From assembly GCA_050950285.1 (NCBI GenBank), contig JBMNHG010000002.1:630654-694653 (forward strand): a stretch of DNA of 64,000 nt, written 5' to 3'. Origin of the DNA: Kiritimatiellia bacterium. GTDB lineage: Bacteria; Verrucomicrobiota; Kiritimatiellia; RFP12; JBMNHG01. This document shows positions 28,030 to 62,068 of the stretch, piece by piece. Within the stretch, counting starts at the first letter, position 1. Every line of letters begins with the position of its first letter. The notes beneath the pieces are model-generated. The model was not told the DNA's origin, did not search any database, and saw nothing but the letters and a program-made list of their open reading frames with translations. Made by a program: the position numbers and the translations under genes.

Positions 28030-28413
28030 CAACCTATGCCACCAATACGTTCTGCACGGTTACCAACGAAACGGTGACGGTTGGCGGCAACATCGTTACT
28101 CTGCCCCATGACAATGCTCTGTGACATGGACCACCGCCACCGCCTGGCGGAACTGCGCAGCGGCAATGCCGCTCCCGTCCATTACGGCTACGATGCAGAG
28201 AACAGGTATGCTACAGTCTCCAACACCGCCTTCCGCGCCACCTACGCCTACACCTCCGACGGCTGGGATGCGGGATATTCGGTGAACTTGACGAATGGCG
28301 TCGTACTGGATCGCGTTGTCTCCCGCGACCCCTACCGTCGCAGTTTGGTAAAAGCCATCACCAACAGCGTCAACGGCGTGCCGTACAACCCGCTGGCCTA
28401 CACCTACGACCTC
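28030..28413 (+). pseudogene. Internal RHS/YD-repeat fragment upstream of the main RHS gene
   Basis: TNETVTVGG...DHRHRLAELRSGNAAPVHYGYD...PLAYTYDL. 28129-28193 is nearly identical to the main gene near 34370-34435. Frame is broken near 28110-28125; no start and no toxin tip. Confidence 0.85.
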
Positions 28414-39600: not shown

Positions 39601-39959
39601 CAAAGAAAGTGGATGTCAACCCCGCTTTAAGCGCCATGACTGGCATTGCCACGTCTATTCGACAGGACGATCCCGCGCTGTTTCTCTGGGGGAAAATTCC
39701 CTACATTACCGATTTGGCAAGAGGCAGAAACCCGAAATTCATCCCTACGAATGTCAATCTTCCCATCAAATACATCAACCAGCATGTCGGCAACGAGGCG
39801 TCGTTTTTTGGGGCGACCGTCTTCGACTTGCAAAACCTGTTCATTGACAATCCTTCGTTTACCGACGACGGCTTTCATTTCAGCGATGCAGGAAATCGAC
39901 ACGTGGCATCCCTTCTCGCTGAAATCATACAAAACAAGATTGGTCAATTGCACCGTTGA
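36681..39959 (+). CDS. Orphan RHS cassette 2 with an SGNH/GDSL hydrolase tip
   Basis: YD repeats, RHS core, IDLLGK, then IHAIGDSMTYG, HDGYPG, LLIGMND, DGFHFSDAGN (SGNH blocks I, II, III, V). Lacks the N-terminal domains. Confidence 0.85.
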   Translation: MEQLRDSAYNHLSRRVLKITATATHTYDYDATGCRIDIRVSESSDHPAVTNSVTRHDFLGHVAEAATPLSRTEYAYHGSSRRIASETEIRSGRVTTPLYDELGDVIGSVADGVASMSLATYELRSNAWWRVATSFLTADGRTNGLSVSRTRLTGLSNALRACVETEADGATTRVATSFDPVAKVSTDTLERTGMATTTRKRMFGREIEATDADGVTRYNYFDPYGRVYLTREFTGERFHWRTLAMRNDVGDVYASARFIGGTPHWNNVARFNGFDSRGNLVASTNEMGYVTHSLFDSAGRLAVRFGAVHPVGYGYDATGRLKSLFTTRNGATWDVTQWNYDPATGLVTNKVYADGSVLAHGWTPDGLPERTTWARGAWRHVAYNDRRLPAAVSYSDPGTPGHELSYDAFGRLVAVADAAGRRHGYAYGVPAASPTNETAAADSATNAIARILDANSRPVSTTLRINDAPRGGVWHAYADSGRLAQVAATNAQGRGLVAAYTNFAGWPVGHSVELPSGAVFTRTLARDAYRPNRVTSIVHAFDGVEISRYTHTFDALDRLSARNADTFGYNVRSEVVSATVASNEYAYAYDHIGNHTTASVNSATTTFEANALNQYTSFSNLVQSCNPVYDADGNMLTNGVWSYTWDCENRLVTACSNNVCVVSNAHDYLSRRVLKATPEAVHAFVYDGWNLIHETVTAGNGDVSEIQYFWGPGLSGTLQGAGGVGGLLAVSINGQFYLPCVDNNGNIAAYVGESGSIVAEYVYDAYGGTIAASGSMSDTFRHRFSTKYYDAETGLYYYGCRFYDPVLHRWLNRDPIQEKGGANLYAFCGNNGINIIDLLGKQGVTVYRIHAIGDSMTYGVRTKTDPLMAPKDPWDLAHRKRLENIQNQGWRGYLKQKLDRASSGKAYRFEFSGNYPASDDPGNIRHDGYPGDKAGKIYERIQQGQIVCKEDDIYILLIGMNDALNLGVELANGAKKVDVNPALSAMTGIATSIRQDDPALFLWGKIPYITDLARGRNPKFIPTNVNLPIKYINQHVGNEASFFGATVFDLQNLFIDNPSFTDDGFHFSDAGNRHVASLLAEIIQNKIGQLHR

Positions 39960-39973
39960 AAATGGAGGTTGAA

Positions 39974-40825
39974 ATGACAAAGTTCTCTATAGCTTCAACT
40001 TTATCAGTCTGCATCATTTTTTCCTTTTCGGCAGGATGCTCACGGGAAAACGAAGGTGTCGGCACACATGAAAGTAGAATTGTCAGATTTGGGGACTGGG
40101 ATTTAGAAAGCCTCGGGGCGTCAACAAATGGTTTGATCCGTTTTTATGACGAAACACTGCAACGATGCGGCTACGCCGACATTTCGGGCAGAGTTGTGTT
40201 GGAACCTCAATATTCCGTATGTAGCGTGACATTCTCCGAAGGATATGCCTGGGTGGAGTTTCCTTACGAATCAGATGCTCACGAAACAAATTATTATGAT
40301 ATTTGTTTTGGTGATTTCATCGACACGAACGGCGTCAGGCTGGTCGGGAAAAAACTGTATACCACCGTTCCGGAGCCTTGGATGTGGGGTTACGATTTTG
40401 AGCCGCAGTTTGTCAATGGGCTTGCGTTCGTGTCGGCCGATCCATCCGACTTTCCAGAAGTTGCCATGCCGACAAACGTGCATCCCAAAATCAGAGAGGC
40501 CCTTGAAAGCAAAAGCGCTAGATATGTCTATTGCATTGACACCAATGGGATCCCCATTGCCGCCCACCACGTTCATGGTCCGTTTTACACAGCCGCCATG
40601 AGCTCTGATGGCCCAAGTTTCCGTGGTGGATGTCGGCGGACATGGATTGATTTGTTGAACGGGGACAGGGGACTTCTACTTTGGGATGGAAGCATGCCAT
40701 TAACGACTTCGGTTAAAGACCCAGAAAAATTTCAGGAGATCGAACGCCGATTCGTCGAAGAGAACTATGGAACTAACGGCGTCGTGAAATTCACAGGCCA
40801 GGCATGGATGTTCTTCTATCATTGA
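39974..40825 (+). CDS. WG-repeat lipoprotein, putative immunity protein (copy 1)
   Basis: GGAGG RBS; lipobox FSAGC; GYADISGRVVLEPQY...FSEGYAWV, FIDTNG, FVNGLAFV. Confidence 0.75.
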   Translation: MTKFSIASTLSVCIIFSFSAGCSRENEGVGTHESRIVRFGDWDLESLGASTNGLIRFYDETLQRCGYADISGRVVLEPQYSVCSVTFSEGYAWVEFPYESDAHETNYYDICFGDFIDTNGVRLVGKKLYTTVPEPWMWGYDFEPQFVNGLAFVSADPSDFPEVAMPTNVHPKIREALESKSARYVYCIDTNGIPIAAHHVHGPFYTAAMSSDGPSFRGGCRRTWIDLLNGDRGLLLWDGSMPLTTSVKDPEKFQEIERRFVEENYGTNGVVKFTGQAWMFFYH

Positions 40826-40893
40826 CCATACGCTGGCTACTGGCTGACGGGGAGTGAAATATTATTTAATAAAATCACAAGAGGAATAAGTAA

Positions 40894-41577
40894 ATGAGAA
40901 TCAACAGATCGTTTAGTTTTCTTGTGTTCCTGGGAATGAGCGGGTTGCTTTTCACATGGCTACTGCATGGACAGGAAAAGAACGAAGAGCTTATCCCGTT
41001 TGTTTCAAATGAAACCAATCGGCGGGGGTACAATTTGTGGGGATACACAAACCCAAAAGGGCAAGTCGTCATCGAGCCACGGTTTTTCCACGCTTCTGAA
41101 ACGTGGTCGGACGGGTTTGCCTGGGTCGATGTCGAGGAATGCACGAATTTCAATACGTGCTTGGAGTGTGATGGATTGGGGTATGCCGGTGATTTCATTG
41201 ACAAAAGCGGCAAACGTCTGGTTAACAAGCACATCCATGCTCTCGTCGGCGAGCCTTGGGGCATCGGATGGGAGCCCCGTTTCGAACAAGGATTGGCGTT
41301 TGTGAAATTTCCTGATGGAACCATTTTTTGCATAACTACAAACGGCATTCCCTTGGACGTCCACAAGGAACATGGCCCTTTTGTTGATTATTGTTATGGT
41401 GTTTTACGTTACGCTTTCAACCATCAAGGTGTTGCGGTGTTTCGGGTCAAAAGTGGAGGGTATGGGTTGTTGTCTACAAACGGGACGGTTGTAGTGGCAC
41501 CGACAAATACAAGAAGTAAAATCTCCCAACTTTTGAATGAATTAACGGTCGACACGGCGAACGAATCGAAAGACTGA
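40894..41577 (+). CDS. WG-repeat secreted protein, putative immunity protein (divergent paralogue)
   Basis: Signal peptide; WGYTNPKGQVVIEPRF, WSDGFAWV, GDFIDKSGKRLV, FEQGLAFV. Confidence 0.72.
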   Translation: MRINRSFSFLVFLGMSGLLFTWLLHGQEKNEELIPFVSNETNRRGYNLWGYTNPKGQVVIEPRFFHASETWSDGFAWVDVEECTNFNTCLECDGLGYAGDFIDKSGKRLVNKHIHALVGEPWGIGWEPRFEQGLAFVKFPDGTIFCITTNGIPLDVHKEHGPFVDYCYGVLRYAFNHQGVAVFRVKSGGYGLLSTNGTVVVAPTNTRSKISQLLNELTVDTANESKD

Positions 41578-41623
41578 CGTGGACAAAATTTTGTTTGGAG
41601 AAAGAAGTGGATAAAAAACTGCC

Positions 41624-42484
41624 ATGAAAACAATGACAAAGCTTTATATGGTTTCTAGTCTATTGGTTTGCATGCTCCTTTCCCTTTCTGCAGGCTGTTC
41701 ACGGGAAAAAGAGGGCAACGATATGCGCAAGAGTCGAGTTGTCAAATTTGGAGCCTCGGATTTGGAAAGCCTCGGAGCGTCAACAAATGGTTTGATCCGT
41801 TTTGCTGACGAGACTTTGCGCCGATACGGCTACGCCGATATTTCGGGCAGAGTTGTGTTGGAACCTCAATATTCGGCGTGCAGCGTGACATTCTCCGAGG
41901 GTTATGCCTGGGTAGGACTTCCTGATGAATCAGACTCTTATAAGACAAATTACTATGATTATTATTTCGGTGATTTCATCGACACGAACGGCGTCAGACT
42001 GGTCGGGAAAAAACTGTATACCACCGTTCCGGAGCCTTGGATGTGGGGTTACAATTTTGAGCCGCAGTTTGTCAATGGGCTTGCGTTCGTGTCGGCCGAT
42101 CCCTCCGATTTTCCAGAAGTTGCCATGCCGACGAATGTGAATCAAGAAGTAAAGAAGGAGCTTGAAAGCAAAAGCGCCAGATATGTCTATTGCATCGATA
42201 CGAATGGAAATCCAGTCAGCGCCCACCATGTCCACGGGCCTTTTTATACAACTGCTACATGGTGCAACGGCCCCAAGTTCCGTTGGGGAAGTCGGCTGAC
42301 ATGGGTCGATCTGTTGAACGGGGACAGGGGAATACTGCTTTGGGACGGAACCGTGCCCCTGACGACTTCGGTCAAGGGCTATGAGGAGCTTTTGGAGATC
42401 GAACGCCGATTCGTCGAAGAGAACTATGGAACTAACGGCGTCGTGAAATTCACAGGCCAGGCATGGGTGTACTTCTATTATTGA
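41624..42484 (+). CDS. WG-repeat lipoprotein, putative immunity protein (close paralogue of 39974-40825)
   Basis: Lipobox LSAGC; long identical stretches with copy 1. Confidence 0.75.
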   Translation: MKTMTKLYMVSSLLVCMLLSLSAGCSREKEGNDMRKSRVVKFGASDLESLGASTNGLIRFADETLRRYGYADISGRVVLEPQYSACSVTFSEGYAWVGLPDESDSYKTNYYDYYFGDFIDTNGVRLVGKKLYTTVPEPWMWGYNFEPQFVNGLAFVSADPSDFPEVAMPTNVNQEVKKELESKSARYVYCIDTNGNPVSAHHVHGPFYTTATWCNGPKFRWGSRLTWVDLLNGDRGILLWDGTVPLTTSVKGYEELLEIERRFVEENYGTNGVVKFTGQAWVYFYY

Positions 42485-44672: not shown

Positions 44673-46246
44673 CACTAGCATCCCATAGGCTTGCCGAAAT
44701 CACTCCTGCCTTCCCCCATTGGAAGTCAGCGCACGCGCTCAAGACGGGAGCGTCGGGCCGGATTGAAAAAAAGGGCTGACCTCCCGGCCGTCTGCCTGTA
44801 GCCTACAGGCATTATGAAAAAAAAAGCGACCAAGGCGCGTAAACGCGCAACCAAGAGGCCAGCGAGAACATCGTACACCACCCTGCGCCAGATCGTCCAG
44901 TGGATTCCCGCGGGATTGCCGGACAAGATCGCGCGCGACATCGGGGCGGACATCCGCGGATTCTCCTGCGCCAGCCATGTGCTGGCGCTGCTCTACGGCC
45001 ATATCGCCCGCGCGGGCAGCCTGAACGAGATCTGCGACGCGGCCCGGCTGCACGAGCCGGAGCTGAACCGCATCCGGGGCGCGACGGCCCCGAAGCGCAA
45101 CACCTTCTCCAACGCCAACCGGAGGCGCGACCCGGAGATCGCGGAGCGGCTCTACTGGGAGGTGTTCGAGCACCTCCGGACCATCTGCCCGTCCTTCACG
45201 CAGTACAAGAAGCACAAAGGCTTCATCTTCCGCCTGAAGCGCGGGATATTCGCCATCGACTCGACCACGCTGAAGCTCACGCTCGACTCGATCGACTGGG
45301 CCAGGCACCGCCGGAAGAAGGCCGCCGCCAAAACCCACATGGCCCTCGACGTCGGCAGCAGGCTGCCGACGTTCGCGGTCGTGGAGGACGCCGCGCACCA
45401 CGACTCGACGCGGGCGGACGCGCTGTGCGCGGGGCTGAAGGACGGCGACGTGCTGCTGGCGGACCGCGCCTACGTCGACTTCCTCTTCCTGCACGGACTC
45501 GCCGCGCGCGGCATCTTCTTCGTCCTGCGGGAGAAGGAGAACATGGACTTCGAGGTGCTGGAGGAGAGAGGGCATCCGGACCGGCGCATACTCAAGGACC
45601 AGACCATACGCCTGCGGGGCAGGCTGACGGCGGGAAAGTACCCCGGGCCCCTGCGCCGCGTCGCCGCCGTCGTCGAGGTGGACGGGCAGGATCGGGAAAT
45701 GACGTTCATCACCAACCATTTCGCGTGGAGCCCCCGCACCGTCTCCGAGCTCTACCGCGCCCGGTGGGTCATCGAGTCGTTCTTCAAGGAACTCAAGCAG
45801 ACGCTCCAGCTCAAGGATTTCGTCGGGTACAACGAGAACGCGGTCAAGTGGCAGGTCTGGGTCGGGCTGCTGGCGCATCTGCTGCTGCGCTTCCTCAAGC
45901 ACGTCTCGGAATGGGGACTGAGCTTTTCCCGGCTCGCCGGGGTCGTCAGGTCCGCCGTCTGGATGAAGATCGACCTGCTCGACGCCCTGCGGAAGTATGG
46001 GACAGCAGGCGGCCCAAAGCGCCCTGTAATTTCCGGGAAACAGCTCTATTTCCAAGGATTCGAGCCATTCGCGAGCCGGCCCGTGGGATAGCACATGCCC
46101 CAAAACCCCTGTTTTCGGGCATCCGGGCCGATCGCGCAGGCAAACACGTTTTCCGGGAACGCCTTTGAAATCGCGATAAATCCCTGCAAATCAATGGGGG
46201 AAAGGGGGCAATATGCCCGTTTTCAGCCGCCTATGGGATGCTAGTG
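44673..46246 (+). mobile_element. IS4-family insertion sequence, 1574 bp
   Basis: Perfect 18-bp terminal IRs CACTAGCATCCCATAGGC (44673-44690 and 46229-46246); 9-bp TSD ACTTCATCC (44664-44672 and 46247-46255). Confidence 0.95.
44814..46091 (+). CDS. IS4-family DDE transposase
   Basis: FAIDSTTL, KTHM, LADRAYVD, LYRARWVIESFFKELKQ (YREK-type motif). Confidence 0.93.
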   Translation: MKKKATKARKRATKRPARTSYTTLRQIVQWIPAGLPDKIARDIGADIRGFSCASHVLALLYGHIARAGSLNEICDAARLHEPELNRIRGATAPKRNTFSNANRRRDPEIAERLYWEVFEHLRTICPSFTQYKKHKGFIFRLKRGIFAIDSTTLKLTLDSIDWARHRRKKAAAKTHMALDVGSRLPTFAVVEDAAHHDSTRADALCAGLKDGDVLLADRAYVDFLFLHGLAARGIFFVLREKENMDFEVLEERGHPDRRILKDQTIRLRGRLTAGKYPGPLRRVAAVVEVDGQDREMTFITNHFAWSPRTVSELYRARWVIESFFKELKQTLQLKDFVGYNENAVKWQVWVGLLAHLLLRFLKHVSEWGLSFSRLAGVVRSAVWMKIDLLDALRKYGTAGGPKRPVISGKQLYFQGFEPFASRPVG

Positions 46247-49242: not shown

Positions 49243-49519
49243 CAATGCTTGGCATAGGTTCTGGCTATAGTTTGGAGAAAATGAGTCATGTCTTTAAATG
49301 AAATCATGCGGCTTCTACGGGCAACCCTGCTACGATGGCTTACAATGGATGCGGTCGCAATGAAAAGCAAAAACAAATATGTGCCTAACTGCCGCTAGCG
49401 GGTTATCTTAAGGTCTTTTCACCGTGACTTGTAAAGTTTGCCTCAAAATCTTGTGCAACAGCGCCGCGATGAGCATCATTCTCTGGACTTGCAATCCTGC
49501 CGCCGGATTTGTTGCCAAC

Positions 49520-52048
49520 ATGGTCTACGTCGACCGCCTCGCCGTTCGCAACGCCGACGCCTTCGGCTACAACTCCCAAAACGAAGTCGCGGCGGCAACC
49601 CAGCATTTCTTCGACGCGCTGGGGCGCGAGACCAACACGGTGGAGCGGTGCGCCAGAATTGAAGGCGCGCTGACCAATTCCGCCGCCGTCCACAACCGCG
49701 GCTGGGTGTCTTCCGAGACAACGGCCTATCCCTTCGGCATTTCCGACTACTCCGTCCACACCGACAAGCGCGGATTGCAAACCGTGGCGTTCTCCATCCC
49801 CTCGTCCGAGGCCGTGACCTCGGCCCGGTACGTCTTCGTTTCGCCGGAGGAGGAGAACCCCGCCATCATCGAAACCAGCACCTTCTTCCGAAACGGGCGC
49901 AGCGTTTCCACGCGGTACTGGGCAGGAGGGTGGTCGCGCGAGACGCGCTTCTCCCAATATGCGGAAGACGGCACGCGAAGCGACTTCGCCGTGTCCGAGG
50001 GCTCCGACTTCGACGGAGCGGTTACAAACTCGGTCGTGCAATTCGACTTCCTCCAGCGTGGCATCGTCCAGACCACGCCGCTTGAATCCGTCACGAACCT
50101 CTACGACGGGGCGAGTTCGCGCATCGTCCGCGTCCTGTCGTCGGCGTCGCCTGCCGTCACGCCCCTTTACAACGACCTCGGCGAACGCATCGGCGCGACG
50201 AGCGCCGGAGTCACCACGCTCTCGCAGGAAACCTACGAGACGGTTTCAAACGAAACGTGGCGCGTTTTCAGCAGCCTTCAAATCGCGGATGGCACCACCA
50301 ACCGCCTCGGCGTTTCGCGCTCCCGGCGCACGGGGCTTTCCAACGCCCTGCGCCGCCATGAAATCGTCACGGACGCCTCGGGCGCGACGACCGCCTCGAC
50401 CGCGTCGTTCGATCCGGAAAGCGGCATCCTCACCGTTGTTTCGACGACCGACGAACAAACGCCGGTCATCCGAAAGAGGCGATACGGACGGGACGTTGAA
50501 ATCAGCGACGCCACGGGAACCTGCTACCTGAAGCACGACCCGTTCGGTCGCGAATACATGCGCCGCCGGGACAACAAAACCTTGCACGGCCTACCCGCTG
50601 GACGGGAGGGTTTTCGACGACTGCGGCGATCTCGCCATCTCCCTTGTCTGCGAGCACGACAGCGCGACCTTCCTCGTCAAGTCCTTTGCATACGATTCCT
50701 TCGGCAATCTCGCCGAGATGCAAAACGAGATGGGTGAAACCGTCCTCAACGACCACGACGCCCTTGGAAATCTTTTGTGCCAATACGGCTCGGCGGCCCA
50801 TCCCGTCGGCTTCGACTATGATACCAGGGGGCGCATGAATGCGCTCGGCACCACTCGCGAAGGCGACGCCTGGGACGTCACGTCCTGGATTTACGACCGC
50901 GCCACCGGCCTTGTCGGCAGCAAGGTCCATGCCGACGATTCGGTCGTGTCCTACGCCTACACCCCGGACGGCAAGCCGCTTCGCACCACCTGGGCGCGGG
51001 GGGCTTGGAGGGAAAACGCCTACAATGCCAACGGCCTTTTGGCAGGCGTGTCGTACTCCGACGCCACACCCGCCGTTTCGCTCGATTACGACGCCTTCCA
51101 GCGTCTTGCTTCCGCCTCGAATGGCGTCGCCGCCTACACCTATGGAAACAGCGCCCTCGGCGTTGCCACGAACGAGACGGCGACGCTCGGCGGCGACGTC
51201 TGGACGTTGACACGCCGACTCGACGGCCGCCACCGCTTGGCTGGCATGTCCCTTTCGCCTGCGTCGCAGGGCGGGGGCGCGGCACCGTACTCGGTGGCGT
51301 ATGGCTACGACACCGAAGGACGCCTCGCCGCCGTCTCGAACGAGGTGTTTGCCGTTTCCTATGCATTCTCCTATCGGGGTTTGGATGCGGGCTATTCGCT
51401 TGCGTTGACCAACGGGGTTTCGTTGAACCGGGCATTGGCTCGCAACGGTTGGCGGCACGAACTGGTTCGCCGAGTGACCAACGCGACCTCCACGGGCTGG
51501 ACGAACACGCTCAACTACGCCTACGACGACGCGGGGCGCGTCACCGCCCGCAACGCCGACACCTTCGGCTACAACGCCCGAAGCGAGGTCACCAACGCAA
51601 CCCTGGGAGCCATAAACTACGCCTACGCCTACGACCACATAGGAAATCATACGGCTTCATCCGTTGATTCCGCGACCACGATTTACGAAGCCAACAGCCT
51701 GAACCAGTACACAACTATTGACACCATCACACCAAGCTATGATGCCGACGGGAACATGACATGGGACGGGCGTTTCAGCTATGCGTATGATGCCGAGAAT
51801 CGCCTGATTGCGGCGTATTCCAACACTGTCTGTATCGTTTCCAACGCCTATGACCATGCCAGCCGCCGTGTGTTGAAGTGGACACCGTGCCACACAACCA
51901 CCTTCGTTTATGACGGTTGGTTGCCAATCCTTGAGATTATTGCCACCGCCTCGGAAGTTGCCACAAATGCCTATGTATGGGGCAAAGACCTCTCCGGCAC
52001 CCTGCAAGGCGCGGGCGGCGTCGGTGGACTGCTTGCTGTTTCACTAAA
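49520..52048 (+). pseudogene. Orphan RHS cassette 4, 5' part (frameshift near 50580; interrupted by IS1380, then intron 1)
   Basis: HFFDALGRETNT...YD repeats...GAGGVGGLLAVSL. Continues at 53769-53806 (NDSWHFPLYDNNG) and at 55741. Confidence 0.85.
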
Positions 52049-53763
52049 CCTAAAAAGAGCAGTTGAACTTTCAAGTTATCATCCGGAGCATCATTTGGTC
52101 GCCTTCTGAGACTGGGTAGAGCACCCTTCCGCGCAGCCATTTGACGAACGCCGCCGACAAAATGATCGCCCAGACCTGCCCGGCGCTCAACTGCTCCGCA
52201 ATTGCCGCGAGGTTGTTCATGAACCTGCCGATCCTGTCCAGGACGAGGCGGACCTGTCCGCCCAGGGCGTGCGTCGAGGTCAGGCGCACGATCTTCCGGC
52301 GGCCGGTGGTGACCAGCCGGCCGACCGCGTGGAGCAGCAGGGGCCGGGATGTGACCGCCTCCATGTGGGTGTCCGGCCGGGCGAGGCGCGTGAAGATGTT
52401 CCACCAGTTGTAGACCAGGGCGACGATGCGGGCGATGATGCGGCAGCGCCGCAGGTCGCGGGTCACGAAGCCGCCCCAGCCCCACTGGTTCTTGATCTCG
52501 TCGAACACGTTCTCGCAGTCCGCCCGGTCCCTGTACAACTGGGACAGGGCCATGGCGTCCAGGGTTCCGTCGTTGGTCACCAGCACGGCATAGTCCCATG
52601 TCCGCGCGTCCGTGACCTCCGGGGCGAAGGCGAACTCCGGCCCGGAGGGGCGGGGCGGCTCCGCGCGCGCGGGGCGGCGCAGGAACACGCACCGGTCGCT
52701 CGGCTGTCCAGCCGGCCAGCTTCAGGCGGCTCTCGGACGCCCGCCAGCCCTCGCCGGCGTCGGTCCACGCCCGGCCGGGCGCCGCCAGCTCCCGGAGCCG
52801 CGACTTGATCTTCGGCGAGCGCCTCAGCTTGAACAGGTAGGGCTGCCCGCGCGCCTCGGCCTGCGCCATGACCTTCTCGCTGCCGTAGCCCACGTCCCCG
52901 CGTATCAGCCGCGGGCGGCACCCGGGCGGAAGCGAGTCGATGAGCTTCCACAGGCCGGGCATGCCGCAACCCCCCGAGTGCTGCTTCCCGGGCTGCACGT
53001 CGACGCCCAGCACGAGGCGCAGCGCGCCGATGAAGTACGTGTGGCAGTTGTGGCTGGGCCGCCCCGGCTTCTTGGGGTTGTAACCCAGCTCCGCGCCCTC
53101 CTGATGGCCGTAGAGCGGCTTGACCGTGCTGTCGATGTCCAGGACGTACGCCTCGGCGAGCAGCGGCTCGACGACCGTCCGCTCCAGCCCCGCCAGCCAC
53201 GTGTCCCAGGCCTCTTCCGTCCCGCGGCCCAGCGCCCTGCGGACGCTGTCTTCGGACACCACCTTGCCAAGCCCCAGGACCTCGGCCCCGACGCGGTCGG
53301 AACGCAGCGCGTTGATGTGGGCGTAACGCGTCTGCCCGTTGAGGACGGAAAGCAGCAGCGTCCCCATCACGTCGCGCGCGGCGGGGGCATTGTTGCTCTT
53401 GTACTCCAGCGGCGAGGAGTCGCAGAAACGATCCGGCAGGCCGCCGGTCTTAAGGTACTGGGCGAAGAACACGACGGAGCCCGTCGGCGTCACTTTCGCG
53501 TCGGCGTCCCACTCCACTTCGAAGCATCCGCCGCCCCCGCGGACCAGCAGCCTGCGGATCTCCGCTTGATCCAGAAGCGCCCCTGTGCCATCATTCCCAT
53601 ACGCAACGGTGTCGTTCATCCTATACTCCTTTTTTTAGGTTCAATCAGAAGTATAGGGCGCACCGTTGCGTTTTGCACCAAATAGGTGCGGCGCGAATCT
53701 CAACGAAAGCCAGTGTTTACAGGCCTTTGCTCAAAATCCGCACACCCAACTGCTCTTTTTAGG
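52049..53763 (-). mobile_element. IS1380-family insertion sequence, 1715 bp
   Basis: Perfect 17-bp IRs CCTAAAAAGAGCAGTTG (52049-52065 and 53747-53763); 5-bp TSD CTAAA (52044-52048 and 53764-53768). Confidence 0.92.
52071..53619 (-). pseudogene. IS1380-family transposase with one frameshift near 52690
   Basis: LDIDSTVKPLYGHQEGAELGYNP and IRGDVGYG in one frame; LYRDRADCENVFDEIKNQWGW in the next frame. Confidence 0.85.
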
Positions 53764-53806
53764 CTAAATGATTCGTGGCATTTCCCGCTTTACGACAACA
53801 ATGGAA

Positions 53807-55740
53807 GTGCGCCAAGCGAAGCTCGGCGCTTCTTGCGGGGTGCGAGTCCCCGCCGAGTAAGGACCAGCCACCCACTCGTACCGAGTGTTGGCACTATGGA
53901 AGAGGAGTCGAATCCGAATGAAGTAGTGTAAGCGTACACAGGGAACTCCGCAGGCCGCAGGGGGGATGCACCCTCCCGAAGCGGTTCAGCCTCGTTAAGC
54001 GATCATGCGCAGGGCGACATGCTTGCCGTCATGGAAGCCAGCAACAAGGACGCGCAAGGGCTTGCGTCCGGTGACTGCGCCGGGGTCTACGGCGCGCGGC
54101 ATGCGGGGAGAGAAGCGAACGGGAACTTGGGAGACCCGCCGCCGTCCGCGCCCTGCGAGGGGCGTGGTAGCGTCCGCCGAGCCGAAAGGGAAGGCGGCGC
54201 GACGCGGCGGCGGGAGTCAGACCGCCCCATAGTACTCCGAGACGGGCGAGCCGGTCACACGGGGAAGGGGGCGGCGGGGCTGCGAAGCCCGCAAAGGGAA
54301 CAGGCAAGGACGGATATGAGAGGCTGTCAAACACTGCAAACCTCACTGCGGGGAATAGCGGATCGGGCGCGACGCGACCCGAAGGCGCGATTCCGCGACG
54401 TGTACAGGCTGCTCGACGAGGCGAACCTGCGCGAGTGCTTCCGAGCGCTGCGCAGGGACGCCGCGCCGGGGGTTGACCGGGTGACGTTCGATGATTACGA
54501 GCGCGACCTGGAGGCCAATCTCTCGGCACTGGTCGAGCGGCTCAAGCACAAGCGGTACCGCGCCCGACTGGTGCGCAGGGTGTACATCCCGAAGGGAGGC
54601 GGGAAACTGCGTCCCCTCGGAATCCCTGTGCTGGAGGACAAACTGCTGCAAATGGCCGTGGCGAAGGTGCTCACGGCGATCTACGAAGAGGACTTCCTGC
54701 CGGCGAGCCGGGGCTACCGTCCCGGCGGCGACGCCCGCGAGACGAGCCGCGAATGGGCGGCGAGGCTCGGCGGGGGGAGCTACGCGTGGGTGGTCGATGC
54801 GGACATCAAGGGCTTCTTCGAGCATGTCGATCACGACTGGATGCTCAGGATGCTGGAGCTTCGCATCGACGACAAGCCGTTTCTGCGGCTGGTGCGCAAA
54901 TGGCTCAAGGCGGGAGTGCTCGAAACGGACGGACGGGTGCTGCATCCGACGGAAGGGACGCCCCAAGGCGGGGTGGTCTCGCCGGTGCTGGCGAACGTCT
55001 ACCTGCACTACGCGCTGGATCTCTGGTTCGACCGCGTGGTCAGGAGGACGACGCCGGGCCGATGCGTGATGCTGCGCTACGCCGACGACTTCGTGGTCGC
55101 CTTCGAGCGGCGCGAGGACGCGGAACGCTTCCTTGGGGAACTGCCCGGGCGACTGGGCAAGTTCGGCCTGGAGCTGTCGGGGGAGAAGACGCGGCTGGTG
55201 CGCTTCGAGCGGGGCAACCCGTCGGGCGACAACGGCGGCTTCGACTTCCTGGGGTTCCAGTACCACTGGGAGCGTACGCGAAACGGACGCTGGAAGGTGC
55301 AGCGCCGGACGGCTCCGAGCCGTCTCCGGCGGTCGGTGGAACGCTTCGCCGAGTGGATCAAGGCCAACCGGGGCGGACGCCTGCCCGTTCTCATGGAACG
55401 GCTGGGGCGCAAGCTCGCGGGGTACTGGCAGTACTACGGCGTGACGGGCAACGGGCGCAGCCTGTGCAAGTTCTGGAGGCAGGTGGTGGCTGGGCTCTAC
55501 AAGTGGCTCAACCGCAGAAGCCAGAAGCGGGGCTTGACCTGGGTCCGTCTCAATGCGATCCTCAAGCGCCACGGGGTGCCGGGACCGCGGATCACCGAGA
55601 GCGGGCAGATGCTGTTTTCCTTCATGGGGGCGCGTTGAAGACCGAGTGCAAAGCGAGCAGTCCCGAAGAGCCCGGTGCGGGAATTCCGCACGCCGGGATC
55701 CGTGCGGGGGGCGCCCGGCAACGGGCGTCCCTACCGCGAT
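53807..55740 (+). mobile_element. Group II intron 1 (1934 nt, En-minus)
   Basis: 5' GTGCG; domain V GAGCCCGGTGCGGGAATTCCGCACGCCGGGATC at 55668-55700; domain VI hairpin with a bulged A; 3' end ...CGAT. Removal gives GAC AAC AAT GGA A|AC ATC ACG GCC = DNNGNITA. Confidence 0.95.
54316..55638 (+). CDS. ltrA: Group II intron reverse transcriptase/maturase
   Basis: APGVD, IPKGGGKLRPLGIP, VVDADIKGFF, GTPQGGVVSPVLANVYLH, RYADD, FDFLGF, domain X; no HNH domain. Confidence 0.95.
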   Translation: MRGCQTLQTSLRGIADRARRDPKARFRDVYRLLDEANLRECFRALRRDAAPGVDRVTFDDYERDLEANLSALVERLKHKRYRARLVRRVYIPKGGGKLRPLGIPVLEDKLLQMAVAKVLTAIYEEDFLPASRGYRPGGDARETSREWAARLGGGSYAWVVDADIKGFFEHVDHDWMLRMLELRIDDKPFLRLVRKWLKAGVLETDGRVLHPTEGTPQGGVVSPVLANVYLHYALDLWFDRVVRRTTPGRCVMLRYADDFVVAFERREDAERFLGELPGRLGKFGLELSGEKTRLVRFERGNPSGDNGGFDFLGFQYHWERTRNGRWKVQRRTAPSRLRRSVERFAEWIKANRGGRLPVLMERLGRKLAGYWQYYGVTGNGRSLCKFWRQVVAGLYKWLNRRSQKRGLTWVRLNAILKRHGVPGPRITESGQMLFSFMGAR

Positions 55741-56684
55741 ACATCACGGCCTATGTTGACGAGAACGGCACCATCGTGGCGGAATATACCTACGATGCCT
55801 TCGGCCGCACCATCGCGGCAACCGGATCTCTAGCCGACGCCTTCCGCCACCGTTTCAGCACGAAATATTACGATGCCGAAACCGGTCTCTACTACTACGG
55901 CTACCGGTTCTACGCCCCCGAGTTGATGCGGTGGCTGAACCGGGATCCGATTGGAGAGGCCGGGGGTGACAGCCTATACATATACTGTGGAAACAATCCT
56001 TCGGATAATTTTGATTCACATGGTCATGTCTGGGTTGTAAATAGAAAAGCAGAACTACCATATGCAATTGCAATAGCAAATCATGATAATGACAATTTTG
56101 ACGATCTGGCGGAATTGCTGGGATTAGATAGTAAGGACTACACTGACTGGGCTCATACCTCCGACTCCTCTGCAATAAAATGCAAGGAATACAAAATACC
56201 TAACACCATATATTACCAACATGGGCAGCTTAAGCTGCACGATCATGTTTTCTCCAATATAATTAACATATGGCGCAATCAGAATCTTCAGCAAGCCGAT
56301 CTTGATCGTGAAAGCAAATTCCATGTTATATGGCAGGAGAATGTCGCGGATAACGCTATTTCAGAAGCATTAGGCAATCCATATTTATATCAATATATTT
56401 TCACCGGGCATGGAGCGCTGGATGGTATAATTAACTCATACAAGAGTGAAGGTATAATGCCGGGGAGATATACCAAATATGGCATAAATTTGTTGCGATT
56501 AAATGCGTGTGGAAGTGCAGACAAAGGACTTGTTGCTTCAAAGGGGATATTTTATAAGTATAACGAGTGGGAATGGAACGTTGCTGTTCGGGGTAAATTT
56601 GTTGGATATGCCGGAGAGATAAACACTTTCACTGAAGTTCTTGGTTGGCGCATAACTTTGGGCAAGAACAGGAAAGGATATTGA
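55741..56684 (+). pseudogene. Orphan RHS cassette 4, 3' exon: core end plus a tip homologous to the main-gene tip
   Basis: ITAYVDENG...FSTKYYDAETGLYYYG...NNPSDNFDSHGH, then an AT-rich tip with YIFTGHG and LNACGS. Confidence 0.85.
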
Positions 56685-57249: not shown

Positions 57250-57619
57250 ATGCACTTTATAATCACTGATCGCCAACATAAAGACACCGCCATCACCTAT
57301 GGCGGCGACACACCCGCCATCGCGCTTACCTACGCCTACACGTCCGACAACCGTGATGAGGGCTACACCATCACACTGCCCAACGGCATGCTCCTCTCCC
57401 GTACCGTCATCCACGACCCCTACCGACGCAGTCTGGTAAAAGCCATCACCAACAGCGCCAGCGGTGTGCCGCACAAACCGCTGGCCTACACCTACGACCT
57501 CCTCAACCGCGTCACGTCACGAAACGCCGACACCTTTGATTACAACGCCCGCTCCGAGGTCACTTCCGCCATCATCCAGCCCGCCCACACCAACCGCTAC
57601 GCCTTCGACAACATAGGCA
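57250..57619 (+). pseudogene. Orphan RHS cassette 5, 5' exon (short internal RHS fragment)
   Basis: 57450-57619 is close to the main gene at ~34600-34773 (PLAYTYDLLNRVTSRNADTFDYNARSEVTSAIIQPAHTNRYAFDNIG). Left boundary is approximate. Confidence 0.82.
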
Positions 57620-59551
57620 GTGCGCCAAGCGAAGCTCGGCGCTTCTTGCGGGGTGGAAGTCCCCGCCGAGTAAGGACCAGCCATCCACTCGTACCGAGTG
57701 TTGGCACTATGGAAGAGGAGTCGAATCCGAATGAAGTAGTGTAAGCGTACACAGGGAACTTCGCAGGCCGCAGGGAGGATGCACCCTCCCGAAGCGGTTC
57801 AGCCCCGTTAATTGATCATGCGCAGGGCGACATGTTTGCCTACATGGAAGCCAGCAACAAGAACGCGCAACTGGCTTGCGTCCGGTGACTGCGCCGGGGT
57901 CTACGGCGCGCGGCATGTGGAGAGAGAAGCGAACGGGAACTTGGGAGACCCGTCGCCGTCCGCGTCCGCGAGGGCGCGGTAGCGACCGCCGAGCCGAAGG
58001 GGAAGGCGGCGCGACGCGGCGGCGGGAGTCAGACCGCCCCATAGTACTCCGAGACGGGCGAGCCGATCACACGGGGAAGGGGGCGGCGGGGCTGCGAAGC
58101 CCGCAAAGGAAACAGGAAAGATGGACACGACAGGCTGTCAAACACTGCAAACCTCACTGCGGGGAATAGCGGATCGGGCGCGACGCGACCCGAAGGCGCG
58201 ATTCCGCGACGTGTACAGGCTGCTCAACGAGGCGAACCTGCGCGAATGCTTTCGGGCGTTGCGAAGGGACGCCGCGCCGGGGATTGACCGGGTGACGTTC
58301 GACGACTACGAACGCGACCTCGACGCCAACCTCGCGGCGTTGGTCGAGCGGCTCAAGCACAAGCGGTACCACGCCCGACTGGTGCGCAGGGTGAACATTC
58401 CAAAGGGGGGCGGGAAACTGCGTCCCCTCGGAATCCCTGTGCTGGAGGACAAACTTCTGCAAATGGCCGTGGCGAAGGTGCTAACGGCGATCTACGAAGA
58501 GGACTTCCTGCCGGCGAGCCGGGGCTACCGTCCCGGCGGCGACGCCCGCGAGGCCAGCCGCGAATGGGCGGCGAGGCTCGGCGGGGGGAGCTATGCGTGG
58601 GTGGTCGATGCGGACATCAAGGGCTTCTTCGAGCACGTCGATCACGACTGGATGCTCAGGATGCTGGAGCTTCGCATCGACGACAAGCCGTTTCTGCGGC
58701 TGGTGCGCAAATGGCTCAAGGCGGGGGTGCTCGAAACGGACGGACGGGTGCTGCATCCGACGGAGGGGACGCCCCAAGGCGGGGTGGTCTCGCCGGTGCT
58801 GGCGAACGTCTACCTGCACTACGCGCTGGATCTCTGGTTCGACCGCGTGGTCAGGAGGACGACGCCGGGCCGATGCGTGATGCTGCGCTACGCCGACGAC
58901 TTCGTGGTCGCCTTCGAGCGGCGCGAGGACGCGGAACGCTTCCTTGGGGAACTGCCCGGGCGACTGGGCAAGTTCGGCCTGGAGCTGTCGGGGGAGAAGA
59001 CGCGGCTGGTGCGCTTCGAGCGGGGCAACCCGTCGGGCGACAACGGCGGCTTCGACTTCCTGGGGTTCCAGTACCACTGGGAGCGTACGCGAAACGGACG
59101 CTGGAAGGTGCAGCGCCGGACGGCTCCGAGCCGTCTCCGGCGGTCGGTGGAACGCTTCGCCGAGTGGATCAAGGCCAACCGGGGCGAACGCCTGCCCGTT
59201 CTCATGGAACGGCTGGGGCGCAAGCTCGCGGGGTACTGGCAGTACTACGGCGTGACGGGCAACGGGCGCAGCCTGTGCAAGTTCTGGAGGCAGGTGGTGG
59301 CTGGGCTCTACAAGTGGCTCAACCGCAGAAGCCAGAAGCGGGGCTTGACCTGGGTCCGTCTCAATGCGATCCTCAAGCGCCACGGGGTGCCGGGACCGCG
59401 GATCACCGAGAGCGGGCAGATGCTGTTTTCCTTCATGGGGGCGCGTTGAAGACCGAGTGCAAAGCGAGCAGTCCCGAAGAGCCCGGTGCGGGAATTCCGC
59501 ACGCCGGGATCCGTGCGGGGGGCGCCCGGCAACGGGCGTCCCTACCGCGAT
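57620..59551 (+). mobile_element. Group II intron 2 (1932 nt), variant of intron 1
   Basis: Same 5' GTGCGCCAAGCGAAG and 3' CCCTACCGCGAT ends. Removal gives GAC AAC ATA GGC A|AC TTG CTG ACC = DNIGNLLT. Confidence 0.95.
58121..59449 (+). CDS. ltrA: Group II intron reverse transcriptase/maturase
   Basis: Nearly identical to 54316-55638; intact YADD. Confidence 0.95.
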   Translation: MDTTGCQTLQTSLRGIADRARRDPKARFRDVYRLLNEANLRECFRALRRDAAPGIDRVTFDDYERDLDANLAALVERLKHKRYHARLVRRVNIPKGGGKLRPLGIPVLEDKLLQMAVAKVLTAIYEEDFLPASRGYRPGGDAREASREWAARLGGGSYAWVVDADIKGFFEHVDHDWMLRMLELRIDDKPFLRLVRKWLKAGVLETDGRVLHPTEGTPQGGVVSPVLANVYLHYALDLWFDRVVRRTTPGRCVMLRYADDFVVAFERREDAERFLGELPGRLGKFGLELSGEKTRLVRFERGNPSGDNGGFDFLGFQYHWERTRNGRWKVQRRTAPSRLRRSVERFAEWIKANRGERLPVLMERLGRKLAGYWQYYGVTGNGRSLCKFWRQVVAGLYKWLNRRSQKRGLTWVRLNAILKRHGVPGPRITESGQMLFSFMGAR

Positions 59552-60948
59552 ACTTGCTGACCAACGGCGTTTGGTCTTACACGTGGGACTGCGAGAATCG
59601 GCTTGCCACGGCGTCCTCAAACAACGTTTGCGTTGTTTCCAACGCCTACGACTACCTTTCCCGCCGCGTCCTGAAGGCCACGCCCGAGGCGGTTCACGCC
59701 TTCGTCTACGACGGCTGGAACTTGATCCACGAAACCGTGACGGCAGTCAACGGCGACGTTTCGGAAATCCAGTACTTCTGGGGGCCCGACCTCTCCGGCA
59801 CGCTCCAAGGCGCGGGCGGCGTCGGCGGCTTGCTGGCCGTTTCCATCAACGGGCAGTTCTACCTGCCTTGCGTTGACAACAACGGCAACATCACCGCCTA
59901 TGTTGGAGAAACTGGCTCTGTCGTGGCAGAGTATGTCTATGACGCCTATGGAGGCGCCATTGCCCAAACCGGAAGCATGGCAGATGCCTTCCGCCATCGT
60001 TTCAGCACAAAATACTACGACGTAGAAACGGGGCTTTACTACTACGGACGCCGGTTCTACTCGCCAACGCTCCACCGCTGGCTCAACCGTGATCCGATCC
60101 AAGAACAAGGAGGGGCGAATCTGTATGCGTTTTGCAGAAATGATGGAGTGAACGCCGTGGATTTGCTGGGGCTTGCCTTGTATGCCTTTGATGGAACCTG
60201 GAATGACAAGGACAAAATGAAGCGTCCGACCAATGTCGCCAAGCTATATGAAGCTTACCAGAATCCAAGCAAAGTATACATGAAAGGAATTGGAACAGCC
60301 TCCTTGACAAGGGTGATCGGCGGCATAACGGGCGCTGGTGGTAAAAGCCGAGTTCATGCTATGTATCGTAGGCTTGTGAAATTTTACAATACACCTGATT
60401 CAACTGGCGAAAATCAAAAAATTGATGTCATCGGCTTCAGTCGTGGCGCAGCGCTTGCGCGCGATTTCGTGAACTACATCAACGAGCAAGGCGGCGTGCC
60501 CAGAACGACGAAAAACGGCAAGGAAATTGTTTGCCCCGTGACGATTCGCTTCCTGGGCCTTTTTGACACGGTGGCCTCCTTTGGGATACCCGGAAATGGC
60601 GTAAACCTCGGATACGATCTCTCCATCCCCGGCAACGTGGAACAGGTTCGCCATGCGATTGCCCAAGATGAATATCGCGGCATGTTCCCCCTCTCGCCCG
60701 TTTTGGATCCGGACGGGACCGGTGTCGATCCAAGAATCGTTGAACGTCCCTTCCGGGGCTCGCATTCTGATATCGGCGGAGGATATGACGTTGGAGACCG
60801 ATCGAATTTCGCCTTGAACTGGATGTATCACGAGGCCATCCGAGTGGGCGTGCCCTTTGGGCCGCTCAATCCCGAAGACATCGGCGCAAGCGATCCGGTC
60901 ATGCACGACACCGGAGGCACGGGGCCCCGGGACATCGATTACCCATAA
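59552..60948 (+). pseudogene. Orphan RHS cassette 5, 3' exon: RHS core plus a Tle1/DUF2235 phospholipase-like tip
   Basis: Core is close to cassette 2 from 38581; AVDLLGL then FDGTWND, TNVAKLY, IGFSRGAALAR, FLGLFDTV, HAIAQDEYR, FRGSHSDIGGGY. Confidence 0.9.
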
Positions 60949-60972: not shown

Positions 60973-61359
60973 ATGAAGAGAAAGCCAATCCGTATTTTTC
61001 CATCAGCAACGGTTTCGATTATGATGTCGGCGCTTGGGGGATGCATGACACGGGACTATGCGGTCGGAATAAGAAACAGAACCGAAAAGATGATACATGA
61101 AGCCAGTGTGTCATACGATGGGTTCCAGTCGGTTGGAGGTACAATTGGGGCAGGTCGCGCTTCCGTACACCATTCTCCAGAAGTCCCCATACCCAAGGTT
61201 GCACAAGTCGAATGGCAAACAGAAGACGGTGTTTTTCATCGGCGGAATGTCGAGGTTAAAAAACATATGCCAAGAGGTTTTGGCGTGTATTGGTATTTGA
61301 TGTTTGAAATCACGGACGGGGAGGTTGTTCTTCGCTTTTTGGAAGACAGGGGGCAATAA
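60973..61359 (+). CDS. Putative immunity lipoprotein for the Tle1-like tip
   Basis: GAGGAG RBS; lipobox-like ALGGC; directly after the toxin. Confidence 0.68.
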   Translation: MKRKPIRIFPSATVSIMMSALGGCMTRDYAVGIRNRTEKMIHEASVSYDGFQSVGGTIGAGRASVHHSPEVPIPKVAQVEWQTEDGVFHRRNVEVKKHMPRGFGVYWYLMFEITDGEVVLRFLEDRGQ

Positions 61360-61480
61360 AGATGTGAAGTACGGAGCCTCGGGACACCCATTGTCCATAA
61401 GGATCAGCAAATGAGGAGTTGTGGGAACTCGTTCAGTTGAAAACAAGCAGGAAAGCCGTAGCAAAGGAGATGTTGTGACT

Positions 61481-62068
61481 ATGCGTTGGATCAGTTTGAT
61501 CGGAATGGTTTTTTGTTCTTTGGGATGTGCCCAGACTTCGTCAAAACCTGAAATGCAGACAGGGTTTGTACGTTATGCCATTGACTTTCATGTTGAAGAT
61601 TTAGAATCGGATAAGTTCCCCGAAGTGATTACGTTGTCGGAGGAGGTGTACACAATGGCACTGCAATGTAAAAGCGAAGATCCTGGGTTGTTCGGGTTGG
61701 CTGTTGCGCTCATCCTGTCAAAATACCATCATTTCTACCTCGCTACTTTTAGGCAGGGATATGGATTGATTGACCCTTCGGATTTTGAATCTGGAGAATA
61801 TCTGAAGGAAGGGAACACCCGATATTTTCTTGTACGAGAATTTTTAGACACGACGGGATGTCACCCTGTTATTGACGACGCGTCTTCTGCATCGGCAAAT
61901 GCGTGGTTTCTGAGCCACTGCGACATGGGGAAAAGCGAACATCTGGCATTAAGAAATGCTTGGTTGAAGAGTCGAAACGAACGTAAAGCGGTTCTGGATA
62001 AATGGCTTGATGCCCACCCGGATTATCCCAAGAATGCCTTTGAAGTCGATTTTCATTCTCCTTGGTGA
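61481..62068 (+). CDS. Hypothetical lipoprotein, putative orphan immunity protein
   Basis: AAGGAG RBS; MRWISLIGMVFCSLGC. Confidence 0.62.
   Translation: MRWISLIGMVFCSLGCAQTSSKPEMQTGFVRYAIDFHVEDLESDKFPEVITLSEEVYTMALQCKSEDPGLFGLAVALILSKYHHFYLATFRQGYGLIDPSDFESGEYLKEGNTRYFLVREFLDTTGCHPVIDDASSASANAWFLSHCDMGKSEHLALRNAWLKSRNERKAVLDKWLDAHPDYPKNAFEVDFHSPW

Follow-up and report, generated by a model that had tools for sequence, protein, structure and literature searches.

A group II intron family in orphan RHS cassettes and in-frame junctions between non-contiguous RHS exons in an assembled Kiritimatiellia genome

Spliceosomal introns are presumed to descend from group II introns. In eukaryotic exon shuffling, modules are bounded by phase-matched introns, and recombination within the introns gives in-frame combinations; to our knowledge, exon shuffling by intron recombination lacks a bacterial example. 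The mitochondrial introns cox1-i1 of Podospora and aI1 of yeast transpose ectopically to sites with similar intron-binding sequences (IBS), after which recombination between the copies deletes or rearranges the DNA between them, and the endonuclease-less integration of bacterial introns of the RmInt1 type depends on host replication or repair. An intron has reportedly been found in the Rhs-associated H-repeat of E. coli. Here we describe a group II intron (intron 2, positions 57620-59551) in an array of rearrangement hotspot (RHS) toxin genes, located in a 64,000-nucleotide (nt) stretch of DNA from a Kiritimatiellia bacterium (contig JBMNHG010000002.1 of assembly GCA_050950285.1; hereafter the window). 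The two RHS exons flanking intron 2 are not contiguous in any intron-free RHS gene examined, and we favour, with modest confidence, the explanation that homologous recombination between dispersed intron copies joined unrelated RHS cassette halves.

Several related processes are described in earlier reports. Recombination between intron copies of bacteria and archaea is accepted there as a deletion process (PMC4424553, PMC5894124), and the nested and tandem introns of Methanosarcina acetivorans are accounted for by repeated homing that is balanced by deletion of copies via homologous recombination (PMC4424553). Silent orphan toxin tips found downstream from the main rhs gene of Salmonella Typhimurium LT2 are activated by homologous recombination (PMC3967940), and in Clostridium tetani the group II intron C.te.I1 fuses an upstream open reading frame (ORF) to alternative partners, thus diversifying a surface protein (PMC3919590). 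A search of open-licence PubMed Central and bioRxiv retrieved no literature placing group II introns in Rhs/YD-repeat genes or tying them to toxin shuffling.

A 1.08-Mb contig, one of 12 in a genome of 4.05 Mb and roughly 70% G+C, contains the window. The main RHS gene (28635-36221) encodes 2528 amino acids (aa), and orphan RHS tips are arrayed downstream of it, with varied toxin domains, candidate immunity genes and two insertion sequences (IS) of the DDE type. The tip of cassette 2 is a GDSL lipase, another is a Tle1-like phospholipase, and further tips follow. Two group II introns lie within the array, with matches to the Rfam model RF02005 for ribozyme domains I-IV at 53843-54095 (intron 1, 101.8 bits) and 57656-57909 (intron 2, 103.3 bits; gathering score 49). 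Several G|N codon boundaries within the RHS core are referred to as sites A, B, C and D, the flanks of all introns were mapped onto the main RHS protein, and statements on junctions hold for the assembled sequence.

Intron 2 and the RHS exons that it separates

Intron 2 (plus strand, 1932 nt) begins with GTGCG and ends with CCGCGAT. Its ends agree with the group II boundaries 5' GUGYG and 3' AY (GTGCG at 57620, CGCGAT ending at 59551), and the same ends were found in all eight full-length copies in this genome. Predicted domains V and VI (59477-59551, plus strand) were aligned end to end with positions 1-77 of RF00029; the alignment displays GAGCC...GGAUC and CCCUACCGCGAU, with the putative bulged A in the latter, and ends exactly at 59551 (36.2 bits, 3.8 under the curated cutoff of 40; E 6.6e-5). 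An intact ORF (58121-59449, plus strand) encodes the intron-encoded protein (IEP), a reverse transcriptase (RT)/maturase of 442 aa (Pfam RVT_1 4e-33 and GIIM; TIGR04416 343 bits, cutoff 300), in which Pfam and NCBIfam profile searches detected no endonuclease domain. Judged by these features, intron 2 is a genuine group II intron. The predicted exon-binding site 1 (EBS1), TGCCTA (57837-57842, plus strand), sits in the terminal loop of a domain I stem in the Rfam alignment and is the exact complement of the final six bases of the 5' exon, TAGGCA (6/6 Watson-Crick pairs); the copies vary at 57841 and 57842. A candidate EBS2, GTCGAA (57720-57725, plus strand), was found by a complementarity scan and pairs with TTCGAC at exon positions -16 to -11, leaving a spacer of 4 nt to IBS1, which is unusual.

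The 5' exon (57250-57619, plus strand) is an orphan RHS core stub of the site A type, ending with ...RYAFDNIG and the first base of the Asn codon. It lies within an ORF at 57250-57744, is open for 136 aa upstream of the junction, and is 88.0% identical to the main gene over 259 nt (57361-57619 against 34515-34773), with 81.6% aa identity to main aa 1946-2048. The 3' exon (59552-60948, plus strand) begins at site B (..|N LLTNGVWSYTWDCENRL) and encodes an RHS-associated core (TIGR03696 3e-22 at aa 129-207) followed by a Tle1-like phospholipase domain (PF09994 4.4e-37). Over 624 nt it is 87.3% identical to cassette 2 (59552-60171 against 38581-39200), and it is 94% identical to C8:811852-813636 from its first base onwards; homology to seven intron-free paralogues begins at most 7 bases from the junction, and at the first base in five. 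These alignments bear out an earlier note on this DNA, which had likened the 5' exon to the main gene up to 34773 (DNIG|N) and the 3' exon to cassette 2 from 38581. The distance from site A to site B is 135 nt in the main gene (34773 to 34908) and 120 nt in cassette 2 (38460 to 38580), and, as also stated in the note, the segment between them (45 aa) is absent at intron 2 with the frame preserved. The spliced reading ...RYAFDNIG|NLLTNGVWSYTWDCENRL... (AFDNIG|NLLTNGVW) is open for 136 aa upstream and 465 aa downstream. Compared with the main gene, the 3' exon shows 58.7% aa identity, and compared with cassette 2, 87% nt identity; the two exons are from different RHS clades.

The host of intron 2 is an orphan cassette, located downstream of the full-length main RHS gene and without an N-terminal delivery part (136 aa upstream of the junction, main aa 1946-2048). 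The earlier proposal that a main-type scaffold had been fused to the Tle1 cassette is not supported at this point, the 5' exon being an orphan stub and not a delivery scaffold.

The junction DNIG|NLLTNG, whose presence in intron-free RHS genes would, according to the earlier note, refute its interpretation, was found in none of nine paralogues in the same genome, none of six RHS loci of relatives and none of 120 database proteins. The normal upstream ...N.LNQY... precedes all nine D..GN(L/M)L(T/A)NG sites of the genome and all six in the relatives, and the two motifs are separated in all 120 database RHS proteins, by about 17-22 aa at the shortest. The A-B segment that bears N.LNQY, absent from the hybrid, is kept in 135/135 intron-free RHS examined.

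Intron 2 belongs to a family. The genome (G000, in which copies are named contig:position) holds eight full-length copies, 96.3-100% identical to intron 2, plus one in C12 that is truncated where the contig stops, a derivative lacking the ORF, and fragments; identity of intron 2 is 96.3-99.4% to six other full-length copies, and 100% over 1313 nt to the partial C12 copy. Six copies have RHS flanks on both sides, and at the level of the assembly three of these pairs are contiguous and three are not. The contiguous pairs are found at C7:30361 (A on both sides), intron 1 and C3:573935 (both with C on both sides). The non-contiguous ones are intron 2 (5' flank A, 3' flank B), C8:817490 (A and C, with main aa 2049-2205 missing) and C6:16155 (C and A, with the A-C segment present twice), the last two being mismatched pairs of the kind that the note had proposed to search for. 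The reading is open in frame across the junction in all six. A 5' flank of type A also precedes the copies C8:821093 and C8:823032, a head-to-tail pair followed by a non-RHS 3' flank, and the ORF-less copy C3:579713 has a 5' flank of type C and a 3' flank without RHS match. Every copy resides in an orphan cassette, and no full-length RHS gene has one.

The two A-C segments at C6:16155 are only 87.8% identical, and thus derive from different cassettes and not from a duplicated consensus. Among the copies the exons are 78-93% identical and the introns 96-100%, so the joins post-date the spread of the intron. Transduction of 3' or 5' exon sequence along with the intron was considered and rejected, since exons beside 99%-identical introns are only 78-93% identical.

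Two unrelated events would also give an A|B pair, if a repeat unit had been lost by slippage or unequal exchange at the 6-nt GGCAAC common to A and B, and an intron had homed later. The length of the A-B segment varies from about 17 to 65 aa among RHS proteins, i.e. repeat-length change occurs, but each of the 135 intron-free RHS mentioned above has the segment, and the exons on the two sides are from different clades. A precise deletion on 6-nt homology would have to be followed by insertion at the same phosphodiester bond; the junction does retain a perfect site-A target for intron 2 (TTCGAC-AACA-TAGGCA|A). Moreover, three independent occurrences would be needed for A|B, A|C and C|A, and C|A cannot result in this way. 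We consider such a history very improbable.

Target sites and mosaic intron copies

Going by the EBS pairing, the intron targets the codons for the YD-repeat signature, (Y/F)-D-x-x-G|N, with the split falling behind the first Asn codon base. Of the sites with the form GAYAAYANNGGNA|AY in this genome, eight are occupied and 62 empty, and every site splits GGN A|AY, in codon phase 1 and with A at +1; whichever exons are combined, splicing and the reading frame should therefore be preserved. In the main RHS gene, empty sites (all on the plus strand) are present at 34761-34779 (site A, GACAACATAGGCA|AC, boundary 34773|34774), 34896-34914 (site B, YDLDG|N, boundary 34908|34909) and 35235-35253 (site C, YDNNG|N, boundary 35247|35248), and cassette 2 has an empty site B at 38568-38586 (plus strand; GATGCTGACGGCA|AC, boundary 38580|38581). 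The EBS1 co-varies with the 5' exon: TGCCTA faces TAGGCA in intron 2 and the C7 copy, TTCCGT faces ACGGAA in the C3 mini-intron, and TGCCGA faces TTGGTA in C8:821093.

An occupied site and its empty counterpart were found in the C12 and C3 contigs. At C12:16979-18291 the intron interrupts IYDKKG|NLLTLYPAAG in an orphan toxin region that is uninterrupted at C3:239765|239766, and the surroundings are 99.8% identical over 2.5 kb. As assembled, the pair is what a mobile intron would leave behind, and together with the mostly synonymous IEP differences described below it speaks indirectly for splicing and mobility.

Other copies display further states of the family. At C8:821093-824963, two intron variants (96% and 99% identical to intron 2) stand head to tail with zero bases between them (...CGCGAT|GTGCG...), preceded by a site-A-like exon (YDNIG) and followed by a non-RHS flank beginning with TCCTCGTCCTCGAG; one explanation is that the first copy homed into an occupied site, whose 5' exon keeps IBS1 and IBS2. 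A similar flank, TCCTCGAG, follows the intron in one relative (G034, locus L017). In the ORF-less derivative at C3:579713-580409, which consists of intron positions 1-558 and 1832-1932, the EBS1 has become TTCCGT and matches the derivative's own exon ACGGAA perfectly, and the branch-site A is mutated (CCCTGCCGCGAT). Intron positions 286-558 and 1830-1932 are also present, as two pieces, in another relative (G040:C96), where the inner boundaries, 558|1830, are those of this derivative.

Intron 1 (53807-55740, plus strand, 1934 nt) lies at the site-C junction YDNNG|N ITAYVDE and is 96.6% identical to intron 2. Its EBS1, TGCCGT (54024-54029, plus strand), is the exact complement of ACGGCA, the hexamer that precedes 38581 in cassette 2, and the description of this hexamer in the earlier note as the ideal target of the intron 1 loop is thus correct. 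So is its observation by eye that the differences between the two introns are concentrated up to 58765: of 65 differing columns, 64 fall in intron positions 1-1146 and one later, at 59187, and in a maximum chi-square test the observed value was reached by 0/2000 random placements. The note had taken this breakpoint as evidence that intron 2 is chimeric. Variants were counted against the consensus of the eight copies, separately for positions 1-1146 and 1147-1932, giving 53 (35 private) and 1 (0 private) for intron 1, 15 (0 private) and 0 for intron 2, and 49 (38 private) and 11 (9 private) for C8:821093, which is divergent throughout. On these counts the 58765-59187 boundary is a feature of intron 1, in which the 3' 790 nt are replaced by main-subfamily sequence, and not of intron 2. 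The divergent part of intron 1 is, by the measure of its coding sequence, not decay, because 21 of the 29 IEP codons that differ between the two introns are synonymous (8 non-synonymous).

Intron 2 has a boundary of its own. Positions 1-450, including the site-A EBS1, show 0 differences to the C7 A|A copy and 9 to C3, and from position 451 onwards there are 2 differences to C3, 0 to C12 (over 1313 nt) and 14 to C7, with C7 having the intron-1 state at 12 of the 14. By this pattern intron 2 is a mosaic with a boundary near 58066-58252. Over all copies, 294/666 pairs of informative sites fail the four-gamete test, and a statistic resembling the pairwise homoplasy index was reached in 84/5000 permutations, neighbouring sites being more compatible than shuffled ones. 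As far as the assembled copies go, the introns exchange sequence and are recombinant mosaics of one another.

Exchange of this kind could also be coupled to retrohoming. The ribonucleoprotein would attack an ectopic B site in a Tle1 cassette, and the cDNA primed from the 3' end of the intron would invade a site-A copy and copy its 5' exon, giving the A|B join and a 3'-biased homogenisation without a classical crossover of two resident copies. Such a route is compatible with an IEP in which no endonuclease domain was detected, and whose integration would rely on host replication or repair, and B sites (ACGGCA|A) are a perfect match for the EBS1 of intron-1-type copies; every B site examined is nevertheless unoccupied. 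The polarity expected of 3'-primed cDNA is seen in that the 3' 790 nt are the least variable part of most copies and the conversion in intron 1 is confined to its 3' part, but it may instead reflect stronger constraint on the RT C-terminus and domains V and VI; C8:821093, divergent throughout, likewise has 38 private variants before and 9 after the boundary. Furthermore, bacterial retrohoming has been reported as independent of recombination (reference in PMC4424553). We regard the retrohoming-coupled route as rather unlikely.

In both introns a frame other than that of the RT is open for about 990 nt and continues in phase into the 3' exon (58564-60948 in intron 2, 54753-56684 in intron 1; ORFs of 794 and 643 aa). 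The long frames are probably an effect of high G+C; they would permit read-through translation of the toxin tip from unspliced RNA.

The genome is rich in RHS sequence, with about eight matches to the N-terminus of the main protein, of which several are partial or frameshifted, and with orphan tips numbering in the tens. Within the window, a DDE-transposase element (51937-53770, minus strand) lies between cassette 4 (49424-52109) and the final ~36 nt of RHS coding sequence ahead of intron 1, so the 5' exon of intron 1 is severed from its own gene. The other IS (44679-46246, DDE transposase) breaks cassette 3, 15 nt downstream of its site A, and has inverted ends of 18 bp (CACTAGCATCCCATAGGC) and a target duplication of 9 bp (ACTTCATCC); it was considered as a marker of a site A hotspot and rejected as an ordinary insertion unrelated to the intron. 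Two ORFs downstream of the 3' exon of intron 2 (60973-61359 and 61421-62068, plus strand) are candidate immunity genes by position only, and had no Pfam or NCBIfam match. Candidate immunity proteins are likewise encoded behind the cassette 2 tip with the GDSL lipase, by three paralogous ORFs in tandem whose products have beta repeats containing WG (39956-42484; PF14903). An RHS core fragment at 28056-28413, just 5' of the start of the main RHS gene, is 70% identical to main aa 1893-2007.

Origin and reality of the junctions

According to the explanation that we favour, a multi-copy, endonuclease-less intron family would home to the G|N boundary of the YD signature through EBS1/EBS2 pairing and the A at +1. 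Since there are several same-phase boundaries (A, B, C and D) per RHS core, copies would come to occupy different sites of different orphan cassettes. A crossover between two such 1.9-kb copies would then place a 5' exon from a site-A cassette ahead of a 3' exon from a Tle1 cassette of the site-B type, in the simplest form by deletion between direct-repeat introns of neighbouring orphans, with a single hybrid intron remaining. A deletion of this form would cover A|B, A|C and C|A alike, and introns 1 and 2, 3.8 kb apart and in the same orientation, seem poised for it. The hybrids should remain spliceable because EBS1 and EBS2 (intron positions about 101-223) would travel with their own 5' exon, and A in phase 1 opens each 3' exon. 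That introns 1 and 2 are nearly identical past 58765 would stem from a separate, non-crossover event, in which the 3' 790 nt of intron 1 were converted to the main subfamily. We infer the recombination event and its direction from the exon pairs and the mosaic copies. With respect to the earlier claim that recombination between intron variants fused the RHS exons, the non-contiguous pair located exactly at the intron and the mosaicism of the copies are in its favour, while the B-site parent that it calls for was not found.

The last point is one of several that weigh against recombination between resident copies. All nine B sites of this genome are empty, no B site in the relatives searched has an intron, and neither a B-site copy nor a parental allele was encountered among 60 relatives and 400 genomes of the class; the proposed B-site parent is therefore hypothetical. 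In C8:817490 (A|C) the EBS1, TGCCGA, has one mismatch to its own TAGGCA exon, which fits only if the crossover occurred within the first ~220 nt or the parent was already mismatched. The hybrid at intron 2 lacks N.LNQY, which argues against a functional product, and the 3' exon of C6:16155 is frameshifted; the products are probably non-functional in both cases. As to the assembly, no contig bridging 57619|57620 or 59551|59552 was present among the records listed from four metagenome runs, which are short contigs, and the exact 3' junction (29 nt, 59540-59568) had 0 matches in metagenome contigs. Intron 2, having no private variants, equals C7 plus C12 piecewise, as a chimeric consensus would. 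Finally, C12 duplicates part of C3 at 98-99.8% identity with structural differences, possibly as a strain variant of the C3 RHS array, so that strain mixing or repeat mis-resolution comes into consideration.

The C7 (A|A) and C3:573935 (C|C) copies were tried as parents and rejected, since their exons are only 88-92% identical to those of the hybrids and hence paralogues.

Close intron copies (85-92% identity) are present in 4/60 relatives, and 11/400 genomes of the class match at E <= 1e-30, mostly with distant introns. The four relatives' copies whose flanks were inspected (L015-L018) had no recognisable RHS flank of site A, B or C. A scan of metagenome contigs with the 3' end of the intron matched 120 stretches, and most of the 80 that were fetched are distant introns sharing only domains V and VI. 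Three of the fetched loci (L049, L084 and L106) hold a full intron with both flanks. In L106 a full-length relative, 90.9% identical, separates an IS66 transposase, truncated at about position 215 of its 284-position profile, from an RHS site-C exon, and would thus be another mismatched exon pair, from an independent short-read contig to which the same assembly caveat applies. In L049 the end of a DUF4838 domain is followed by a GNVFEWCWD-type exon.

In contigs of other samples (L062, L065, L101 and L106), RHS site C (G|NVTEY..) was also seen to hold intron relatives with 91-97% identity, and more distant introns with the same domain V-VI end were found in the RHS cleavage motif region (L086 and L104; ..|NPIGENGG, ..|NPVGEGG). 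This intron lineage may have settled in RHS genes repeatedly.

An alternative that bears on all three junctions is an assembly artefact, in which near-identical intron copies (97-100%) led to wrong flank joins or to the collapse of two introns with loss of the intervening sequence, so that the A|B, A|C and C|A pairs would be absent from any cell. The genome looks like a metagenome-assembled one, the window stretch having been detected in digester and bioreactor metagenomes, and several of its 12 contigs terminate in RHS or IS repeats (the ends of C2, C4 and C7, the start of C8 and both ends of C12, which terminates inside an intron); intron 2, on the other hand, lies in the middle of a 1.08-Mb contig. 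The duplication of C3 in C12 suggests more than one strain, A|C and C|A form the reciprocal pattern expected of a mis-join, intron 2 has zero private variants, and no bridging record was found among the short contigs. The flanks, however, are unbalanced. Of the nine assembled intron 5' ends, four adjoin A, four C and one another intron, and none adjoins B; at the 3' ends A occurs twice, B once, C three times, D once and non-RHS sequence twice. No contig in the assembly ends at a B 5' exon or inside the 5' part of an intron. Swapping the assembled flanks can therefore not yield contiguous genes, and a re-pairing would need unassembled sequence. The low identity of the two A-C segments at C6:16155 and the independent mismatched pair in L106, with its caveat, also speak against a mis-join, as do exon identities of only 78-93% beside 99%-identical introns and the occupied and empty site pair of C12 and C3.

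Among the runs listed, 20/24 contain at least half of the words of the stretch, stored as short contigs broken at repeats, and four were compared with the window. Contigs from four other samples match the window in the unique flanks with 0 differences, which likewise weighs against an artefact. Loose contig ends at 57619 and 59555 correspond to intron-free A and B sites of paralogues, and the depth of contigs fits the exact copy number: a twofold depth at 59877-60092 is explained by two exact genomic copies and is thus uninformative on the junction. Taken together, the internal evidence leans towards real junctions, and we hold an assembly artefact to be unlikely.

If recombination did join the exons, the outcome need not have been useful to the cell. 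Because the N.LNQY core motif is lost from the hybrid yet kept by every intron-free RHS examined, we infer that the hybrids are probably neutral or degenerative by-products in silent orphans. An adaptive reshuffling of toxins, as the earlier note had envisaged, is unproven, with all introns confined to orphan cassettes. It is doubtful that the introns act as a bacterial exon-shuffling device that joins any 5' RHS module to any 3' toxin tip at the DNA or RNA level; within that reading, which builds on their placement in one codon phase at the repeat boundaries of RHS cores, the DNA route would use recombination inside 1.9 kb of near-identical intron, and the RNA route would pair the 5' splice site of a given copy with the 3' splice site of another copy further downstream in the array (intron 1 with intron 2, for instance), or proceed in trans. 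A lineage with such a device could switch or test toxins with the frame kept.

If the assembly is right, the junctions would represent a bacterial form of exon shuffling. If confirmed, they would offer a natural system for watching intron-mediated module exchange in a fast-evolving polymorphic-toxin family, and would add a source of rearrangement to rhs loci. Should they prove to be assembly errors, they would serve as a warning on such repeats in metagenome-assembled genomes.

Comparison with known systems

The closest counterpart of the intron itself is RmInt1 of Sinorhizobium meliloti, which is likewise composed of a ribozyme and an RT/maturase without endonuclease, homes through EBS/IBS pairing and is located outside essential genes. 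Like the present family, introns of the RmInt1 type also occur in many copies, use ectopic sites whose IBS is similar, include ORF-less and decayed forms, and colonise other mobile or dispensable DNA. Unlike the target of RmInt1, the target here is a protein-coding repeat signature, YDxxG|N, with several sites per gene and dozens of paralogues. Because the same signature recurs, copies at different sites are phase-compatible and recombinants between them stay in frame.

Ectopic transposition followed by recombination between copies is shared with the Podospora and yeast introns, but those events destroy genes and are tied to senescence or petite genomes, whereas here homologous modules are joined and the frame survives. 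The head-to-tail pair at C8:821093-824963 is comparable to the tandem introns of Methanosarcina acetivorans, which, however, home into introns and have no coding exons, while the flanks here are coding RHS modules.

With regard to the toxin genes, the homology used in Salmonella LT2 is the rhs core itself, and the present array has in addition a spliceable 1.9-kb stretch, 97-100% identical, inside the orphans. In contrast to the situation in Salmonella, no main gene has an intron here, and an activation of that type is not supported. C.te.I1 acts at the RNA level through alternative 5' splice sites of one intron, whereas the evidence here is for joins in the DNA. Unlike eukaryotic exon shuffling, the present case concerns a bacterium and self-splicing retroelements, and the hybrids lack conserved core segments. 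What would be new, if the assembled junctions are taken at face value, is a homing site in a repeat codon that makes the intron copies phase-compatible, together with in-frame, non-contiguous joins in half of the RHS-flanked copies.

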